Source of the DNA: a phage | Direction: 5' to 3' (one strand) | Length of the DNA: 64,000 nucleotides | Sequence record: PZ338878.1 | Shown: positions 22,672-28,843 of the stretch, piece by piece | Numbering within the stretch: position 1 is the stretch's first letter | How the letters are laid out: each line of letters begins with the position of its first letter | Notes under the pieces: model-generated | Seen by the model: only the letters and a program-made list of their open reading frames with translations | Told to the model about the DNA's origin: nothing | Database searches by the model: none | Position numbers and translations under genes: made by a program

Positions 22672-25491
22672 ATGTATCCTATTCCTTTATTTATGTCAAC
22701 AACATCAGCTTCAGTAGTAACAGCTACATCTATAACCACTTCCTCTATTGGTATTGCAATAGTTGGTAGTAAAAAGCAACTGACATACACAGTTTCACCG
22801 GAAGATGGTGCGTTATTTGATATAGCTTTTTCATCTTCAGATAATACCAAAATGGTTATAGATAATAATGGTATGATGGAGTTTGTTGCCGAAGGTGGTT
22901 TTGATGCAATAATGACAGCTAAAAATAATTTAGGTGCTGTCTTAACTGATCAATCTGGTGGCTATGCTTCAGAATTAAGTGTGTACACTGAAAGTCTGTC
23001 TGCTATGGATGCAGGAACTACTCAACAATTGGTTGCTACAATCAGTCCAGAAGGTGCTAAAGACCTTCCAGACATGGTAATTACGTACACCACAACAGAT
23101 CCAGAAGTAGCTACTGTAAGTCCTACAGGATTAATAACTGCTCTTAAAGATGGCAGTTGCCGTATAGGTTGCACTGCAACTTATCAAGGAACAGTGGTGG
23201 CCTCTGATAGTTCTTATTTAGGTGTTAATGCTGTTCCTGTTATTTCTAATGTAACAGCCGTGGCAAACAGCTATGGAGACATTCGTGTTGCTTGGGATGT
23301 AGCTGATCCGCTAGATGGTGATACTTATACTGTAGAAGTATTAGATTTAAGTAATAACAGTGTCCAGTGGACTACAACAACCACGAATACTTACGCTTAC
23401 TTTGATATCTCTGACTCTATTCCTCTTTATGGGTTTGCTCCAACATACCTTAAAATTAGCGTTAAGAGCACCAAAGCAGCACCCGTTATCTTTAATAACT
23501 CAATAGCTACAGATGATTCATTCATTAAAGAAGTTATTGTCTTTGCTGGACAAGATAACGTAAATGCACACTTTACAGAACTATCTGGTGCAAATAAAGC
23601 AGCAATGAGTAGCACAACAGCCCGTAATGCATATGCTACGCAACGTGGTTTAGCAAATGCTGAAGTTCTCCCGTTAAATACAGCTTCTGGATCATCAGCA
23701 GCAGATAAATATGCTGACGATAAAGCTGGAACAGGTACACCAGACAACTACTGGTATGATCTGGATAACACAGCAGATGGGCCATGCTTAACTAACTTTA
23801 TCACTAAAGTCACACCTTATGCAAGTAAGGTTAAAGCGATTATTTGGGGACAAGGTGAAAATGATGCTGTATCAGCATCTTCAACTGTTGCAGGTAGATA
23901 CAGTAACACTACACGTTACCATGATGCTACGATAGCTATCTTTGATAAGATGCGTACAATAGTTCCTGCTTCTCAAGCAAAAATTGTTTGGCAGATCCTA
24001 GGACGTTCTTATTTATATGGTGTAGAAGTTAATGGTGTGGATTGGCAGAAATACAGAAATGTACAAAGAACCATCTCTACAGCACGTGACGATGTTATCA
24101 TTGGTTCTTGGGTGGATGGTGCTGAACGCTACAGTGGTTATGTTTATGAAGAAGGTATTGCTGGTCGTATCCATTATATTTCTTCTGTATACCAAACAGC
24201 AGCTACAAAACTTGCTAAATCAGCAGCAGACGGTACAGACCTAACATCAACGTCACCTGTTTGGGTTGATATGGCTGTTCCAACTGGAGCAACAGCTATT
24301 TCCCAATCTAATCAAGATATAATTTTAGCATGGGATGCTCAAGGTTATAGTAAACACTACTTCCGTAATATTAACGTCTTAACAGCATCTGTATTAACTG
24401 AACAAACCCTTAATACGAACAGTTATACGTTTACCTATGCAGATCAAGTAGAACAATATGGTTTTGCAGCAGGTACTACGGTATTTGATGTTGCATATTA
24501 TGACGAAGCAAATGATGTGTTATCTCCTTTAGTACGTTTTAATGTTAGCGTTACAGCAGGAAAAGTAGAAGATAAACCTGTCGTGATGGATTATGATTTG
24601 ACACAAGAAACTCTTCCATCAGATGTTAAGGTTAATGGTGGGAACTCTTTTGCTCGTGCTTCTGGAGATAAACTTGTAGCCACTAACACCTTGGTTGCTC
24701 CGTTGGAGTATGTTGGTACTACCCCTGTAGGTAGACGTGTAACAGCTAACACAGCTACACAAATTTTTGTCAACAACGCCTTAACAAGCGCAAGCCCGTG
24801 GGTAAAGACCAACTTAACTGTTGCAGCTTCATCTGATAACTCTCCGGCTGGAACTACTGCTAATGTATTCAAATTAACTCCGACTACAACCTCTGGTAGT
24901 CATATCTTAACTGCAACATATACTAACGCGTACAACATATCTGCCGGACGTAACTGGTCTGCCTCTGTTTTCTTGAAAGCGAACGGGATTACTAAGGCCA
25001 AACTAAGATTAAAAGCAGGAACTGAAGTTAATGAGGGTACTTTTGATTTAGCAGCAGGTACATTCGCAGGAAGTGAAGCTAATATTATATCTATGGGCAA
25101 CGGTTGGTATCGTGCTATTCTGCATAAAACAGGGATAGCCAAACAGTCCTCCATAAGTTTTGAAATAATTGCCTTGGATGCAACTGGTGCGGAGATTTTC
25201 GCTGGAGATGGTACTAGTAACCTTGCAGTTTGGTTGCCACAGCTTGAAGGTGCTTCTACAGGAGACACATCAAAAGCTGGATCGCCTTATGTCTGCACAT
25301 ATCCTGGAAATTTAGGAGGAGTATCCTTCACTATACCAAGGAACGGACATACTGGTGTGGATGTTTACTATTCCAACGGAGACGTTGTTCGTGACGTATT
25401 CTCTGGTACGGCATCTACTTGGACAATAAACTACTCCAGCTTGTACGATTGGGGATCAGTCTTTATTACAGGTTTGAAATATTACGACTAA
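22672..25491 (+). CDS. fibre/decoration protein with Ig-like region and SASA/SGNH-esterase-like domain
   Basis: 939 aa; central motifs VIVFAGQDNVNAHF and IWGQGENDA resemble sialate O-acetylesterase-type blocks; Thr/Ser-rich Ig-like N-terminal part; lectin-like C-terminus. Confidence 0.45.
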   Translation: MYPIPLFMSTTSASVVTATSITTSSIGIAIVGSKKQLTYTVSPEDGALFDIAFSSSDNTKMVIDNNGMMEFVAEGGFDAIMTAKNNLGAVLTDQSGGYASELSVYTESLSAMDAGTTQQLVATISPEGAKDLPDMVITYTTTDPEVATVSPTGLITALKDGSCRIGCTATYQGTVVASDSSYLGVNAVPVISNVTAVANSYGDIRVAWDVADPLDGDTYTVEVLDLSNNSVQWTTTTTNTYAYFDISDSIPLYGFAPTYLKISVKSTKAAPVIFNNSIATDDSFIKEVIVFAGQDNVNAHFTELSGANKAAMSSTTARNAYATQRGLANAEVLPLNTASGSSAADKYADDKAGTGTPDNYWYDLDNTADGPCLTNFITKVTPYASKVKAIIWGQGENDAVSASSTVAGRYSNTTRYHDATIAIFDKMRTIVPASQAKIVWQILGRSYLYGVEVNGVDWQKYRNVQRTISTARDDVIIGSWVDGAERYSGYVYEEGIAGRIHYISSVYQTAATKLAKSAADGTDLTSTSPVWVDMAVPTGATAISQSNQDIILAWDAQGYSKHYFRNINVLTASVLTEQTLNTNSYTFTYADQVEQYGFAAGTTVFDVAYYDEANDVLSPLVRFNVSVTAGKVEDKPVVMDYDLTQETLPSDVKVNGGNSFARASGDKLVATNTLVAPLEYVGTTPVGRRVTANTATQIFVNNALTSASPWVKTNLTVAASSDNSPAGTTANVFKLTPTTTSGSHILTATYTNAYNISAGRNWSASVFLKANGITKAKLRLKAGTEVNEGTFDLAAGTFAGSEANIISMGNGWYRAILHKTGIAKQSSISFEIIALDATGAEIFAGDGTSNLAVWLPQLEGASTGDTSKAGSPYVCTYPGNLGGVSFTIPRNGHTGVDVYYSNGDVVRDVFSGTASTWTINYSSLYDWGSVFITGLKYYD

Positions 25492-25492
25492 T

Positions 25493-25523
25493 AAAAAAGG
25501 AGCCATTAGGCTCCTTTTCTTTT
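25493..25523. terminator. bidirectional terminator at convergence of plus and minus modules
   Basis: A-tract, AAGGAGCC-ATTA-GGCTCCTT hairpin, T-tract; lies between the last plus-strand gene and the last minus-strand gene. Confidence 0.65.
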
Positions 25524-25526
25524 ATC

Positions 25527-25907
25527 TTAATCAGTGAAAATTACGCTCACATCTTCTTTAGAGAAGAGTTTATGATCTTCACCTTTTGTCTCAAGAGTTT
25601 CATACAGGTTAAGAAGTTCTGAAACATCTTTCTCTACCAGTTTCTTCAATGTTGCAATTTTCTGTTTGCGATTCTTAATACGTTCAGCTACAACCTTACG
25701 TTGGTATCCAGCAGTACGATAACCTGAGAAAGTTACACCAGTAAGACTTGCAGTTACAGGATCGTAGTGACGTTCAATCTGAAATTTATTAAAAGGTACA
25801 GCGTCATCACGAATAATCTTACCGCCATTACTTACTTGACGAAGACCAGTAACTTGTTCCAGTCGTGCCATAGAAATCTTTGGAGACAGACCAGAGTCCA
25901 AATTCAT
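25527..25907 (-). CDS. hypothetical protein
   Basis: ORF-track 25527-25958; probable start at internal Met (MNLDSG...) to avoid overlap with the methyltransferase gene. Confidence 0.45.
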   Translation of the reverse strand: MNLDSGLSPKISMARLEQVTGLRQVSNGGKIIRDDAVPFNKFQIERHYDPVTASLTGVTFSGYRTAGYQRKVVAERIKNRKQKIATLKKLVEKDVSELLNLYETLETKGEDHKLFSKEDVSVIFTD

Positions 25908-25914
25908 ACCGTTG

Positions 25915-26646
25915 TTAATCAGTGCTTTCAGGGTGATTTTGCTGTTCAGTGTACTCATTTAGTCGTTCCTCCGCTTGCTTAAAAATATTTACATCGGCTT
26001 CACAGCCTAAGTATTCTCTACCTGTTAAAAGTGCCGCAACTTGTGTTGTTGCACTTCCAGAGAAGAAGTCTAAGACTACATCTCCTTCGTTGGTATGTAT
26101 ATTAATAAGGTCACAAAACAAAGTCAAGTGTTTTTGTGTTGGATGAAAACGATCTGCTCCTTGATAGATAGGATACTCAAACACACCCTTATGGTAGGAA
26201 GCATTGAAGGTTGGCTTCGAACCTTTAACACAAACAATAGCCATCTCTTTAGCGTTACTAAGGTAGTTAACACCACTGTTGATGGGTACAGGGTTTGTTT
26301 TAATCCATTCAATAGTACGGAACATACGAAAACCAAGCGGTTCAAGGATTTCACGTAGTTCCTGGATCTTCCAGATATCATACCAAACTATGCAAGTACC
26401 ACCTTTTCTAAGCACCCTATAGGCTTCTTTGAATACTTCTTTAAAGTAAGGAATATCTACAACATCCCAGTCACCAAAGTTGTAAGATACACGGAATCTA
26501 TCCGTATCTTTTCCAGTAGGTTCTCCAGATTGAAAATTTGTGTCACGAGAAATAGCATATGGTGGGTCAGTAAGAATCAAATCTACACTATTGCTTTCGA
26601 GGGTTTGCAGGTAGTTTAATGCGGTGTTGTTTACAAATTCGCTCAT
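25915..26646 (-). CDS. DNA methyltransferase (beta-class, N6-adenine or N4-cytosine)
   Basis: N-terminal DPPY motif (LILTDPPYAI) and C-terminal AdoMet motif (VVLDFFSGSATT); no adjacent restriction endonuclease recognised. Confidence 0.75.
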   Translation of the reverse strand: MSEFVNNTALNYLQTLESNSVDLILTDPPYAISRDTNFQSGEPTGKDTDRFRVSYNFGDWDVVDIPYFKEVFKEAYRVLRKGGTCIVWYDIWKIQELREILEPLGFRMFRTIEWIKTNPVPINSGVNYLSNAKEMAIVCVKGSKPTFNASYHKGVFEYPIYQGADRFHPTQKHLTLFCDLINIHTNEGDVVLDFFSGSATTQVAALLTGREYLGCEADVNIFKQAEERLNEYTEQQNHPESTD

Positions 26647-26656
26647 TATATCTCCT

Positions 26657-26686
26657 TCAAAGAAAAGGAGCCGTTAGGCTCCTTAT
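26657..26686 (-). terminator. terminator-like hairpin between SSB and methyltransferase genes
   Basis: AAGGAGCC-GTTA-GGCTCCTT followed on the minus strand by TTTCTTTG. Confidence 0.5.
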
Positions 26687-26706
26687 ATTCACACAATATT
26701 TAATTA

Positions 26707-27654
26707 TTAGAAACAGTGCAGGAAGTTTCGACCATATTGCAAACCAATAGGAGCAAACGGGATATCATCATCGAAATCTTGAACAACAGGTTCTGGTTCT
26801 TTCGGTGCTGGCTCTTTCTTCTCTACTTTTTTAGTTTCTTTCTTAACTTCTTGTACTGGGGTAGACATTCCACGGATAGCAGCAGCTACTTTATCAGACA
26901 AAGCAAGAACTTCACGAGCAGCTTCAATAATCTCTTCTGCCGTTACAGTTTTACCTGTATGATCACGACAAGCGTTAAGAATTGCGTGTCCAACTGAAGC
27001 ACCAAGATCATAGTCAGTTACATCAACGCCACGATCTTTAGCAATTTCAGCTTTCAGAGTAACAGTTGCAGATTGTACCACACCAGCCAAGTCGAAAGCA
27101 TCACCTTTCACACCAGCACGTAGAAGCTCCAGAGCGCCGTTTACAGCGTGTCCTGTTTCAATCCCTACGGTATCACGTTTTTTGTAGTTAGGCTTGTTAC
27201 CGTCATTATTAGATGGCTTATTTCCACCTTTTGAAGAGGATTGCGCTTGCTGAACACCTTCTGTTGAAAGAATAGTGATTTTACCTTTAGAGGAGTTGTA
27301 GTATGTTTTGCCATTCCATTCGGAAGGTTTAACATCCATAGTTAGTTCTACGCCTTTTTCGATAGTAACCCACTTATCACCATCTTTAACTTGCAGGTTT
27401 TCATGTTCTGGGTGCAGTTTAACTTCACCTAGGCTAACCCAAACACCTTTATCATCAGCACCAGCACCTTTCTCTTTAATAAGCAGAGATGCTTTGTGAG
27501 TTGATTCAATTTTCTTATCTGGCTGACCTGCAACCTTAATATAAGAGACTTTCATTTCATCAAACTTATCTAGTTTGACATATTCGACAATACCTTCAGC
27601 CCAGAATGCTTCTTTTTTAGTACGGCGGTCGATTTCAGAATTAATTACTGGCAT
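26707..27654 (-). CDS. ssb: single-stranded DNA-binding protein
   Basis: Gly/Ser/Asn-rich linker and C-terminal acidic tail ending DDDIPF, the canonical SSB C-terminus. Confidence 0.75.
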   Translation of the reverse strand: MPVINSEIDRRTKKEAFWAEGIVEYVKLDKFDEMKVSYIKVAGQPDKKIESTHKASLLIKEKGAGADDKGVWVSLGEVKLHPEHENLQVKDGDKWVTIEKGVELTMDVKPSEWNGKTYYNSSKGKITILSTEGVQQAQSSSKGGNKPSNNDGNKPNYKKRDTVGIETGHAVNGALELLRAGVKGDAFDLAGVVQSATVTLKAEIAKDRGVDVTDYDLGASVGHAILNACRDHTGKTVTAEEIIEAAREVLALSDKVAAAIRGMSTPVQEVKKETKKVEKKEPAPKEPEPVVQDFDDDIPFAPIGLQYGRNFLHCF

Positions 27655-27670
27655 AAATTCTCCTCTATAA

Positions 27671-28069
27671 TTACATTACTTTAACACAAAACTCTCGTAA
27701 AAGAGTAGCGTCAGTTTCTTCCAACAGGTATTTACCAAGACCAATACCAAATCCTATTTCACCACTTTCAAAATGGAGAATTTGTATCTTTTCTCCACCA
27801 AGGTTAATTACTTTTGCTTTTCCAGGATTGTCCAAAACATCTCGTATTGTGTCCTGTAGTAGCATTAGTTCACGTTTTGTAATAGTGGTTTCAGATATCT
27901 CTTTGTCTTCTACCCGCACTGTTAAACGGTTGTATCCACCAAAGAGACATAGTATTTGAATAAAAAAGGTATTATCTTGAGGTTCAACATCTTTTTTAGT
28001 TAGTTCAAGACGATTAGTTTCTCTACTATAGAACGTCTCGACTAAGATTTTAGAACGATTGTCTGTCAT
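27671..28069 (-). CDS. hypothetical protein
   Basis: 132 aa ORF in the replication operon. Confidence 0.45.
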   Translation of the reverse strand: MTDNRSKILVETFYSRETNRLELTKKDVEPQDNTFFIQILCLFGGYNRLTVRVEDKEISETTITKRELMLLQDTIRDVLDNPGKAKVINLGGEKIQILHFESGEIGFGIGLGKYLLEETDATLLREFCVKVM

Positions 28070-28112
28070 TCAAGTCCTCATAATAACACATAATTGTAAG
28101 GTTTGTCAACAC

Positions 28113-28706
28113 TTAAATCTTAAATTCTTCGTTGTTAAACGAATCTAGTGTACGTACTTCTGGTTTTTTGGGAATGAAAACGTCTTTTACAAAGCGGAAC
28201 ATAGGGAAACGTTCTGCCATTTTACGGACGTGTGCTTCTTTACCTGTGTATCGGTGATTAATAGTGCAAATATTAGTTTTCAATGCAAAGTCAAAATCTG
28301 GATGATATACATAATTTTGACCATCCCAGTAACACAGGCAAATAGCTACGTCAAAATTCCATACGATTTCACTGCGTACACCCTCTTCCATGATCATAAA
28401 GTTAAACTTAAGATCTTTATAGTATGCTTCAAATACCCATTTCAAATGTGGTAGTTCGGCATAAGTGTGTTCTGTTTGCTTAGTAAGTTGTTTAACATTA
28501 CGTGCACCAACACCCAACATCAAAAATTTCTCTACCAGTACGGTTGTATTGTGGTTAGGCATACGCAAGTAAATGTCAATATCTTGCGCAGGTGTTTCTA
28601 ATCGCCAGTCGCGTACAGCGCCGCCAGCTACAATTGCAAACGGATCTACCAGTTGGCACATACGTAATACTTCTAAAGCGCGTACTTTTTGATCTTCAAT
28701 ATTCAT
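28113..28706 (-). CDS. Pol-beta-superfamily nucleotidyltransferase (CCA-adding/poly(A) polymerase head-domain-like)
   Basis: IVAGGAVRDWRL...AQDIDIYL matches the GG(A/S)VRD ... DxD signature of class II CCA-adding enzymes; only 197 aa. Confidence 0.5.
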   Translation of the reverse strand: MNIEDQKVRALEVLRMCQLVDPFAIVAGGAVRDWRLETPAQDIDIYLRMPNHNTTVLVEKFLMLGVGARNVKQLTKQTEHTYAELPHLKWVFEAYYKDLKFNFMIMEEGVRSEIVWNFDVAICLCYWDGQNYVYHPDFDFALKTNICTINHRYTGKEAHVRKMAERFPMFRFVKDVFIPKKPEVRTLDSFNNEEFKI

Positions 28707-28843
28707 ATTTTCTCCTATCTCTTATGGTCTTTGCGTTATTCTAGATGTTCAAACATCTAATTATGAAATGGTTTAAAAGTGCGGAACAACCTTGGCAATA
28801 ATAGATTGTCCCACATAAAAACTCCTTTAAAATCAAACAGATA

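Follow-up and report, generated by a model that had tools for sequence, protein, structure and literature searches.

The 64,000-nucleotide stretch of phage DNA in sequence record PZ338878.1, referred to here as the window, carries on its minus strand a DNA methyltransferase gene whose 3′ end overlaps a small second gene. The two are orthologs of gp155 and gp154 of phage phi92, and they raise the question of what the second protein is and why it stays with the first. The methyltransferase alone is ordinary and already annotated in dozens of Justusliebigvirus genomes, and each of the 57 phage records with the partner gene calls its product a 'hypothetical protein'. The initial annotation had read the locus as an orphan methylase that protects its own phage against restriction, followed by a protein of unknown function that might be linked to it. 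We regard it as established that gp154 corresponds to the N-terminal domain of IceA/NlaIII-type enzymes and lacks their nuclease. The unannotated partner gene therefore encodes the front half of a restriction enzyme and has been maintained by selection.

gp154 and the N-terminal domain of IceA

Family libraries have little to say about gp154. Pfam, NCBIfam and PADLOC returned no match, and PHROGs returned only a family of unknown function. A word-indexed search with the protein found four clusters, all from syntenic phi92-like contigs, and an exhaustive HMMER search found 28 representatives with 27–48% identity. In the viral structure library BFVD, the third-ranked match of gp154 was a giant-virus protein annotated as 'ICEA1 virulence factor' (probability 0.90 over 77 columns), with a member of the gp154 family ranked above it. 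Single-sequence hhalign comparisons of gp154 with two IceA proteins were non-significant (5.6% and 0.3%) and, because they pointed to the same region, a proper IceA profile was built.

A hidden Markov model (HMM) constructed from 33 full-length bacterial IceA proteins matched all 29 gp154-family proteins in this same region, with scores between 14.6 and 35.3 bits. The reciprocal gp154 HMM, applied to bacterial loci, matched IceA open reading frames (ORFs) only. By hhalign, gp154 aligned to the IceA profile at 96.2% (E = 2.4e-9) and 95.4% (E = 2e-8), to the N-terminal half of IceA alone at 97.1% (E = 5.5e-11) and to its HNH half alone at 0.1%. As controls, 20 column-shuffled profiles scored no more than 1.1%, a reversed profile 0.3% and the methylase profile 0.1%. 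The invariant residues common to gp154 and IceA coincide (G-x-S, N-G, R-x-D and a final G) and the similarity stops at the equivalent of IceA G121, while the IceA invariants D158, H159, N188, C195, C198, C226 and C229 have no counterpart in gp154. With neither Cys pairs nor a conserved His, gp154 lacks both the HNH catalytic core and the Cys4 zinc site.

The homology is visible only with a purpose-built IceA profile and is confined to the N-terminal domain; the Pfam ICEA profile (PF05315) matched neither gp154 nor any of the 29 family members, even at E ≤ 10. We identify gp154 as a nuclease-less IceA N-terminal domain because the HMM matches, the hhalign comparisons with their controls and the coinciding invariants agree. 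The protein first listed as unknown is thus a homolog of the partners of the methylase's own bacterial relatives, which supplies a concrete and cheap hypothesis for an uncharacterised phage family. In our literature searches, we found nothing that describes gp154 (phrog_20244) as a nuclease-less partner derived from IceA/NlaIII, and nothing on its coupling to methylases or on the CATG-free genomes of methylase-less carriers.

The gene is also longer than the 127-residue ORF first proposed, and does not simply follow the methylase. Its ATG at 25958 is backed by a GGAGG Shine-Dalgarno sequence 9 nt upstream (25968–25972), giving a protein of 143 residues and a 44-nt overlap between the two genes. 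The 127-residue version would start at the internal Met18 (25907) and cut off a conserved helix. Because Met18 lies inside this helix, which is conserved in the family, and its position is usually Leu in the 29-member family alignment, the 143-residue form is the real one. The Shine-Dalgarno sequence upstream of the overlap suggests that translation of methylase and gp154 is coupled. Relatives retain an overlap or near-abutment of 32–44 nt (L004–L008; our loci carry L numbers), 29 nt (L009) or 4–8 nt (L020, L144 and L146).

AlphaFold gave an unusable model of gp154 from five sequences (predicted local distance difference test, pLDDT, of 54) and a model with a pLDDT of 89 from a 20-sequence alignment. 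The latter combines a small alpha/beta N-terminal domain (helices 2–15 and 30–37, hairpin 59–80) with a long helix, presumed to be a coiled-coil or dimerisation element. The PDB matches of the helix were weak and of the coiled-coil type only, and Foldseek found nothing significant for the model in the PDB. We compared the ratio of nonsynonymous to synonymous substitution rates (dN/dS) with two phages of a more divergent phi92-like group, which are ~91% identical over the region and ~98% within these genes, and obtained 0–0.03 for gp154 and a similar 0–0.025 for the methylase. Because dN/dS does not exceed 0.03 and the family motifs are kept at 25–40% identity, gp154 is under purifying selection and is not a decaying pseudogene. 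The full 29-member alignment was too divergent for locus scanning, for which a 9-sequence subset was used. Separately, a match between P0138 (1452 residues, seven tandem repeats) and the gp154 core (residues 38–104; E = 5e-11) was set aside as probably inflated by the repeats.

Methylase partners and the CATG site

The methyltransferase is a beta-class enzyme, as first annotated. Its 243-residue ORF matches PF01555 (N6_N4_Mtase) over the full profile (positions 1–221 of 221) with a score of 106.9 bits (gathering cut-off 26.7) and E = 1.9e-30, and its DPPY motif stands N-terminal to the S-adenosylmethionine (SAM)-binding motif, which is the circular permutation of the beta class. The proposed order of DPPY before FxGxG is correct (residues 27–30 before 195–201), although the second motif is literally FxGxA, with Ala in place of the last Gly; its F195, G197, S198, T200 and T201 are invariant in the methylase alignment. 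DPPY rather than SPPY favours an N6-adenine target. The nearest solved structure is M1.HpyAVI (5hek; E = 1.1e-28, residues 19–238), and the CcrM, MboIIA and RsrI structures match far more weakly. The enzyme has relatives in more than 5,000 protein clusters (E ≤ 1e-10) and falls below the cut-off of every NCBIfam model, the top one being CcrM (99 bits against 830).

Database records give it other names. It is a 'Dam-like N6-adenine methyltransferase' in the record of BASEL phage PaulScherrer and a 'Type III restriction-modification system methylation subunit' in further GenBank records. The Dam label (alpha-class, GATC, PF02086) is not supported, as PF02086 does not match, the motif order is that of the beta class and GATC is not depleted. 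The label of a Type III Mod subunit is likewise unsupported, as the protein has only 243 residues without an extra domain and no Res gene lies nearby; PADLOC ranks Type II methylases first (1.5e-46), with the Type III model at 1.8e-12 over 65 residues. The overlapping methylase and small ORF of phage rV5 (gp096/gp097) proved unrelated to the methylase–gp154 pair.

We then asked what stands beside the methylase's relatives. Two of them, with 55–57% identity, adjoin a PF05315 (ICEA) gene, one in a bacterium and one on a phage-like contig. A scan of one genome per prokaryotic species yielded 75 loci with 45–57% identity, and 67 bacterial loci were readable, in that they contain the whole 3′ end of the methylase gene and 700 nt or more beyond it. 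In 30 of these 67, among them the three closest loci (L042, L106 and L046), the next gene downstream on the same strand encodes a full-length IceA protein. The window's cassette has this same order, methylase and then restriction-enzyme homolog on one strand. Methylase residues 31–61 hardly differ between the phage enzyme and its IceA-linked relatives; we take this loop to be the counterpart of the one with which M1.HpyAVI contacts DNA.

The family PF05315 includes the CATG-specific NlaIII and IceA1, which belong to the His-Me (HNH) superfamily (PMC5714182, PMC2441816; Xu 2002 via PMC2816704). NlaIII is blocked by N6-methyladenine (m6A) in CATG, according to the paper on Fusobacterium M.Fnn23.I (bioRxiv 2022.07.20.500824). 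Together with the CATG statistics below, the IceA-linked relatives indicate that the product of the window's methylase is probably m6A in CATG, which would provide a target site for the methylase of the widely used phi92-like phages and BASEL phages Bas60-62.

A related arrangement was seen in L013 and L014 (3402–4702), where the gene directly upstream of a 55%-identical methylase encodes a full-length IceA protein and the neighbours are phage-like (RNA ligases, HNH). Judged by its genes, this would be an apparently complete CATG-type restriction-modification (RM) system in a phage, and its protein cluster is found on contigs of up to ~130 kb. Among cultured phage records, we found no IceA gene.

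We calculated expected tetranucleotide counts with a maximal-order Markov model. CATG occurs 98 times in the window against 231.8 expected (z = −8.8; observed/expected ratio, O/E, of 0.42) and is the most depleted of all tetranucleotides, while GATC has an O/E of 0.99. As controls, 50-kb samples contain 177 against 210.1 expected in coliphage rV5 (O/E 0.84) and 145 against 193.3 in E. coli K-12 (O/E 0.75). Other palindromes under-represented in the window are CCGG (O/E 0.45), GGCC (0.60) and CTAG (0.64).

Across phages, a beta-class methylase is encoded directly upstream in 27 of 36 gp154-like loci, and two more loci end at a contig edge. The pair recurs in at least five non-syntenic phage contexts: the phi92-type context, a ribonucleotide reductase (RNR)/PhoH/ClpP context between PhoH and ClpP (L009), between RNR and ThyA/DHFR (L020 and L027), between ThyX/MazG and RecG (L029), and a T7-like context (L148 and L149). 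In a divergent gp154 subfamily (L144–L147), the overlapping upstream gene encodes a different adenine methylase of 178–190 residues, with an NPPF motif and the opposite motif order, which matches phrog_799 (E = 1.6e-32) and has no similarity to the window's enzyme. That the partner has been swapped for a non-homologous methylase argues for a linkage that is functional and not merely inherited, and the suspicion that the downstream ORF was functionally tied to the methylase was well founded.

The gene also persists where no such methylase accompanies it. In a distant phi92-like lineage (L017–19, L023, L024, L026 and L041), the gp154-like gene comes directly after gp156 and no methylase is found within 5 kb. 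In L017, it forms its own unit, consisting of a terminator, a TTGACG-17-TAATAT promoter, a Shine-Dalgarno sequence, the gene and a second terminator. Pseudoalteromonas phage J2-1 (MF988720; L141–L143) has a gp154-like gene (ATN93514) and no beta-class methylase in its whole 142 kb; its ATN93500, annotated as 'DNA adenine methylase', has a non-beta (alpha/gamma) motif order and is encoded ~10 kb from the gp154-like gene. In eight separate samples of the methylase-less phi92-like lineage, from at least five contigs, CATG is absent (one occurrence in one sample) against ~57 expected per 21-kb sample (O/E 0–0.02). In J2-1, CATG is absent from 142,204 bp against 336 expected (O/E 0), and CCGG is absent against 95 expected. 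Each gp154-like gene with readable surroundings is thus preceded by an adenine methylase gene or lies in DNA that is (almost) free of CATG.

A different palindrome has been purged completely from IMGVR_UViG_3300014004_000001 (L123 and L134), a phi92-like contig that is 81% identical at the baseplate protein query and has no CTAG in the 43 kb sampled.

What the pair may do

The explanation we favour, at somewhat short of even confidence, is that the pair is an RM cassette of the NlaIII/IceA (CATG) type whose restriction gene lacks its nuclease, and that it acts as follows. The methylase would place m6A in CATG on phage DNA. gp154 would still read unmethylated CATG, probably as a coiled-coil dimer that sits on the palindrome by means of its long helix, and would target unprotected DNA, either the host chromosome or competing DNA that is incoming or co-infecting. 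Its effect could be occlusion or bridging, or it could recruit a nuclease encoded elsewhere. The phage's own genome would be exempt through methylation and CATG depletion, and the methylase-less relatives would be exempt by having no CATG at all. Because a CATG-free genome gives gp154 nothing to bind, its target would have to be other DNA. Such a mechanism possibly explains the extreme CATG avoidance in several phage lineages.

A more tentative idea, which we judge less likely than not, is that gp154-like proteins are a hitherto overlooked group of 'restriction readers' that descend from IceA/NlaIII enzymes, have no nuclease and would bind unmethylated CATG on host or rival DNA and disable it, by occlusion or bridging or with a nuclease recruited in trans. 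Their carriers would escape either by deletion of CATG or by methylation, using whichever adenine methylase is at hand. If this is true, phages possess a self/non-self system made from an RM cassette without a nuclease of its own, they repurpose such cassettes into nuclease-free discrimination devices, and the N-terminal domain of NlaIII/IceA is identified as the recognition module of those enzymes.

Known systems share parts of this arrangement. The pair has the gene order of the Type IIP NlaIII/IceA1 (R.HpyI) RM system (PF05315), a homologous N-terminal domain in gp154 and the CATG signal in the genome. It differs in that gp154 has a helix of ~45 residues instead of the HNH/zinc-finger catalytic half and stays below the Pfam ICEA score, and in that its methylase is a 243-residue beta-class enzyme, whereas M.NlaIII and M.HpyI are larger and belong to another class. 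M1.HpyAVI of H. pylori (5hek/5hfj) is likewise a small, minimal beta-class methylase with no separate target-recognition domain; however, its identity to the window's enzyme is only about one third, its RM system is another one, directed at a GAGG-type site, and it has no gp154-like partner. Orphan phage enzymes such as the Dam proteins of T4 and P1 are likewise adenine methylases that lack a functional cognate nuclease and could plausibly protect the phage, whereas the window's methylase is of the beta class, is not linked to GATC and is consistently tied to a partner derived from a restriction enzyme. The window's methylase has no functional restriction partner, but the label 'orphan' is misleading, since the adjacent gene is a conserved derivative of the gene for the cognate IceA/NlaIII-type enzyme, without the nuclease part.

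Two further comparisons concern function. R.CviAII/M.CviAII of chlorovirus PBCV-1, compared by description only, is likewise a virus-borne CATG modification system that spares the virus's own DNA, and IceA homologs do occur in giant viruses, as the BFVD match shows. Chloroviruses, however, keep an active nuclease that degrades host DNA, while gp154 has no nuclease domain. T4 Alc and Ndd offer an analogy of logic only, as early phage proteins that separate host from phage DNA by a phage-installed modification; they have no sequence or fold relation to gp154, and the mark is hydroxymethyl-cytosine rather than a site-specific m6A.

Several points weigh against the cassette explanation. DNA recognition by the IceA N-terminal domain is a presumption, and we found no solved structure for either the IceA or the gp154 family. 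The activities of both proteins are predictions from sequence, and the CATG specificity is carried over from relatives with 45–57% identity and from the name of a family; 37 of the 67 readable bacterial relatives have no IceA neighbour. No nuclease gene adjoins the pair in the window. Methylase-bearing carriers have CATG O/E values from 0.08 to ~1.3, which is strong to no depletion, and the methylase-less phi92-like lineage was sampled over only ~50 of ~141 kb. The loss of CCGG from J2-1 and the depletion of CCGG and GGCC in the window may mean that purging is simply a response to host restriction pressure.

This last point belongs to an alternative close to the initial annotation, namely that the methylase simply protects phage DNA from host enzymes that cut CATG. 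In that case gp154 would be a restriction-enzyme fragment, captured by the phage, that serves as an anti-restriction accessory, either as a shield of CATG sites, or as a decoy or poison of the host enzyme through competition or hetero-oligomerisation, and CATG depletion would follow from the same host pressure. Orphan phage methylases and site avoidance are established anti-restriction strategies, m6A in CATG does block NlaIII (bioRxiv 2022.07.20.500824), and the CCGG purge in J2-1 together with the window's low CCGG and GGCC points to host restriction as a general force. We nevertheless consider this explanation unlikely. A shield or decoy is useless in CATG-free genomes, yet gp154-like genes are kept there, with their own promoter, and the coupling to two unrelated methylase families is left unexplained. 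Moreover, a search of 5,426 E. coli genomes turned up no DNA homologous to the cassette, and among 72,556 plasmids a single one, from Priestia, had an IceA-family gene.

The BASEL study (PMC8594841) describes phi92-like phages as 'exceptionally susceptible' to the RM systems of Types I, II and III that it tested, so any protection by the methylase must be narrow; as an argument against self-protection, this sensitivity is of weak relevance. The protection is most likely directed against CATG-specific cleavage, and the purely self-protective role first proposed is incomplete because a restriction-derived reader is conserved beside the methylase and because methylase-less carriers have purged CATG. 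We know of no CATG-targeting RM system among those in the BASEL test.

A second alternative is that the methylase has another specificity, such as a GAGG-type site like M1.HpyAVI, GANTC like CcrM, or GATC, and that the link to CATG is coincidental. The closest solved structure is that of M1.HpyAVI, a GAGG-type enzyme, CcrM is the top NCBIfam match, albeit far below its cut-off, and more than half of the readable bacterial relatives have no IceA partner. We find this quite improbable. M1.HpyAVI is about one third identical, compared with 45–57% for the IceA-linked relatives, and residues 31–61 are nearly invariant with the IceA-linked methylases. GATC occurs at its expected frequency, whereas CATG is the most depleted tetranucleotide, and where the methylase has been lost, it is CATG in particular that has been purged completely.

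A third alternative, to which we assign a still smaller likelihood, is a split restriction enzyme in which gp154 is the recognition subunit and a separate HNH protein cuts host or rival DNA, much as chloroviruses do with R.CviAII and M.CviAII. HNH genes do adjoin gp154-like genes in three unrelated contexts, upstream of them in L041 (481–909) and J2-1 (L140, 3153–3731), and downstream in L148/L149 (L148, 2278–2616; a weak PF01844 match, E = 0.0045). The strict need for either a methylase or zero CATG is what true restriction activity would impose, and a partner might dock on the long C-terminal helix. However, we tried these HNH neighbours as the missing nuclease half of IceA and rejected them, since the three proteins resemble neither the IceA HNH domain nor one another and look like ordinary homing endonucleases. 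No HNH gene stands beside the pair in the window or in most of its contexts.

Finally, gp154 could be a controller-type regulator that times the methylase, or a subunit that directs or stimulates that enzyme, and would leave non-phage DNA alone; the winged-helix-like fold of gp154, the overlapping and probably translationally coupled genes and the flanking terminators would fit, but this is very improbable, as gp154-like genes are conserved and independently transcribed in phages without the methylase, none stands beside the bacterial methylase relatives, neither gp154 nor its family matches a helix-turn-helix controller family, and no CATG lies in or near the pair to serve as an operator.

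The locus and its neighbours

The region 24500–28800 is 98.6% identical in nucleotides to Escherichia phages EC.P2 and vB_EcoM_PHB05, and 92 phage records match it, nearly all of them phi92-like myoviruses of the genus Justusliebigvirus. The record of phage Paula names phi92 gp155 (methyltransferase) and gp154 (hypothetical) as the orthologs of the two genes. The pair is the final unit of a minus-strand cluster of replication genes, with gp156 (a single-strand binding protein according to some records), gp157, a nucleotidyltransferase, a DNA polymerase and a primase-helicase encoded on its 5′ side, and tail-fibre genes, convergent with the pair, on its 3′ side. Scans with Pfam, PHROGs and PADLOC matched none of the pair's neighbours to a nuclease or defence family, and the absence of an adjacent restriction endonuclease noted at the outset holds in the sense that no intact gene adjoins the methylase. 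Coordinates are collected in Table 1.

Table 1. Coordinates of the methylase–gp154 pair and its flanking hairpins in the window
Feature	Position	Strand	Basis and remarks
DNA methyltransferase, 243 aa, beta class, phi92 gp155 ortholog	25915..26646	minus	ORF, PF01555, phrog_67
Motif IV, DPPY, catalytic, residues 27-30	26557..26568	minus	read from sequence; invariant in methylase alignment
Motif I, F-S-G-S-A-T-T, SAM-binding loop, residues 195-201	26044..26064	minus	read from sequence
Overlap of methylase 3′ end and gp154 5′ end, 44 nt	25915..25958	minus	sequence
gp154-like protein, 143 aa, phi92 gp154 ortholog, phrog_20244	25527..25958	minus	ORF; phrog_20244 covers 1-143 of 143
gp154 N-terminal domain, residues ~12-84	25707..25923	minus	homology to IceA/NlaIII N-terminal domain; winged-helix-like; presumed DNA-reading module
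gp154 long helix, residues 83-125, basic then leucine-rich	25584..25712	minus	AlphaFold model; in place of HNH domain
Terminator-like hairpin, GGAGCC-N4-GGCTCC and T run	26665..26684	minus	between gp156 and methylase; terminator in Paula annotation
Bidirectional terminator-like hairpin	25495-25518		between gp154 and convergent tail-fibre gene; core near-identical to upstream hairpin

The position of the pair at the 3′ end of the operon was thus recognised from the start, with one qualification. Hairpins of the GGAGCC-N4-GGCTCC type occur only twice in the window, once on each side of the methylase–gp154 pair, so that the pair is set off from the operon and is not merely its last genes. The same type of hairpin brackets the lone gp154-like gene of L017 (4882–4908 and 5429–5455). 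The paired hairpins may be terminators duplicated when the cassette was inserted or exchanged.

Just 5′ of gp157, on the minus strand (28080–28109), lies a near-consensus sigma-70-type promoter, TTGACA-18 nt-TATTAT with an upstream TG (11 of 12 matches). Its transcripts probably read through the 26665–26684 hairpin into the methylase. Homologs of the nucleotidyltransferase gp158 (L004, 3209–3856; L006, 3196–3849) have weak precomputed matches to PF26128 (Gad2), presumably a family of anti-Gabija proteins, and the window's gp158 (28113–28706, minus strand) has no more than a weak PolyA_pol match. Lastly, the records MG065645 and MG065656 ('Campylobacter phage A145' and 'Campylobacter phage C3') encode a gp154 with 99.3% identity to the protein of the phi92-like phages of E. 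coli, whose genome size they also share; their Campylobacter host label looks doubtful.

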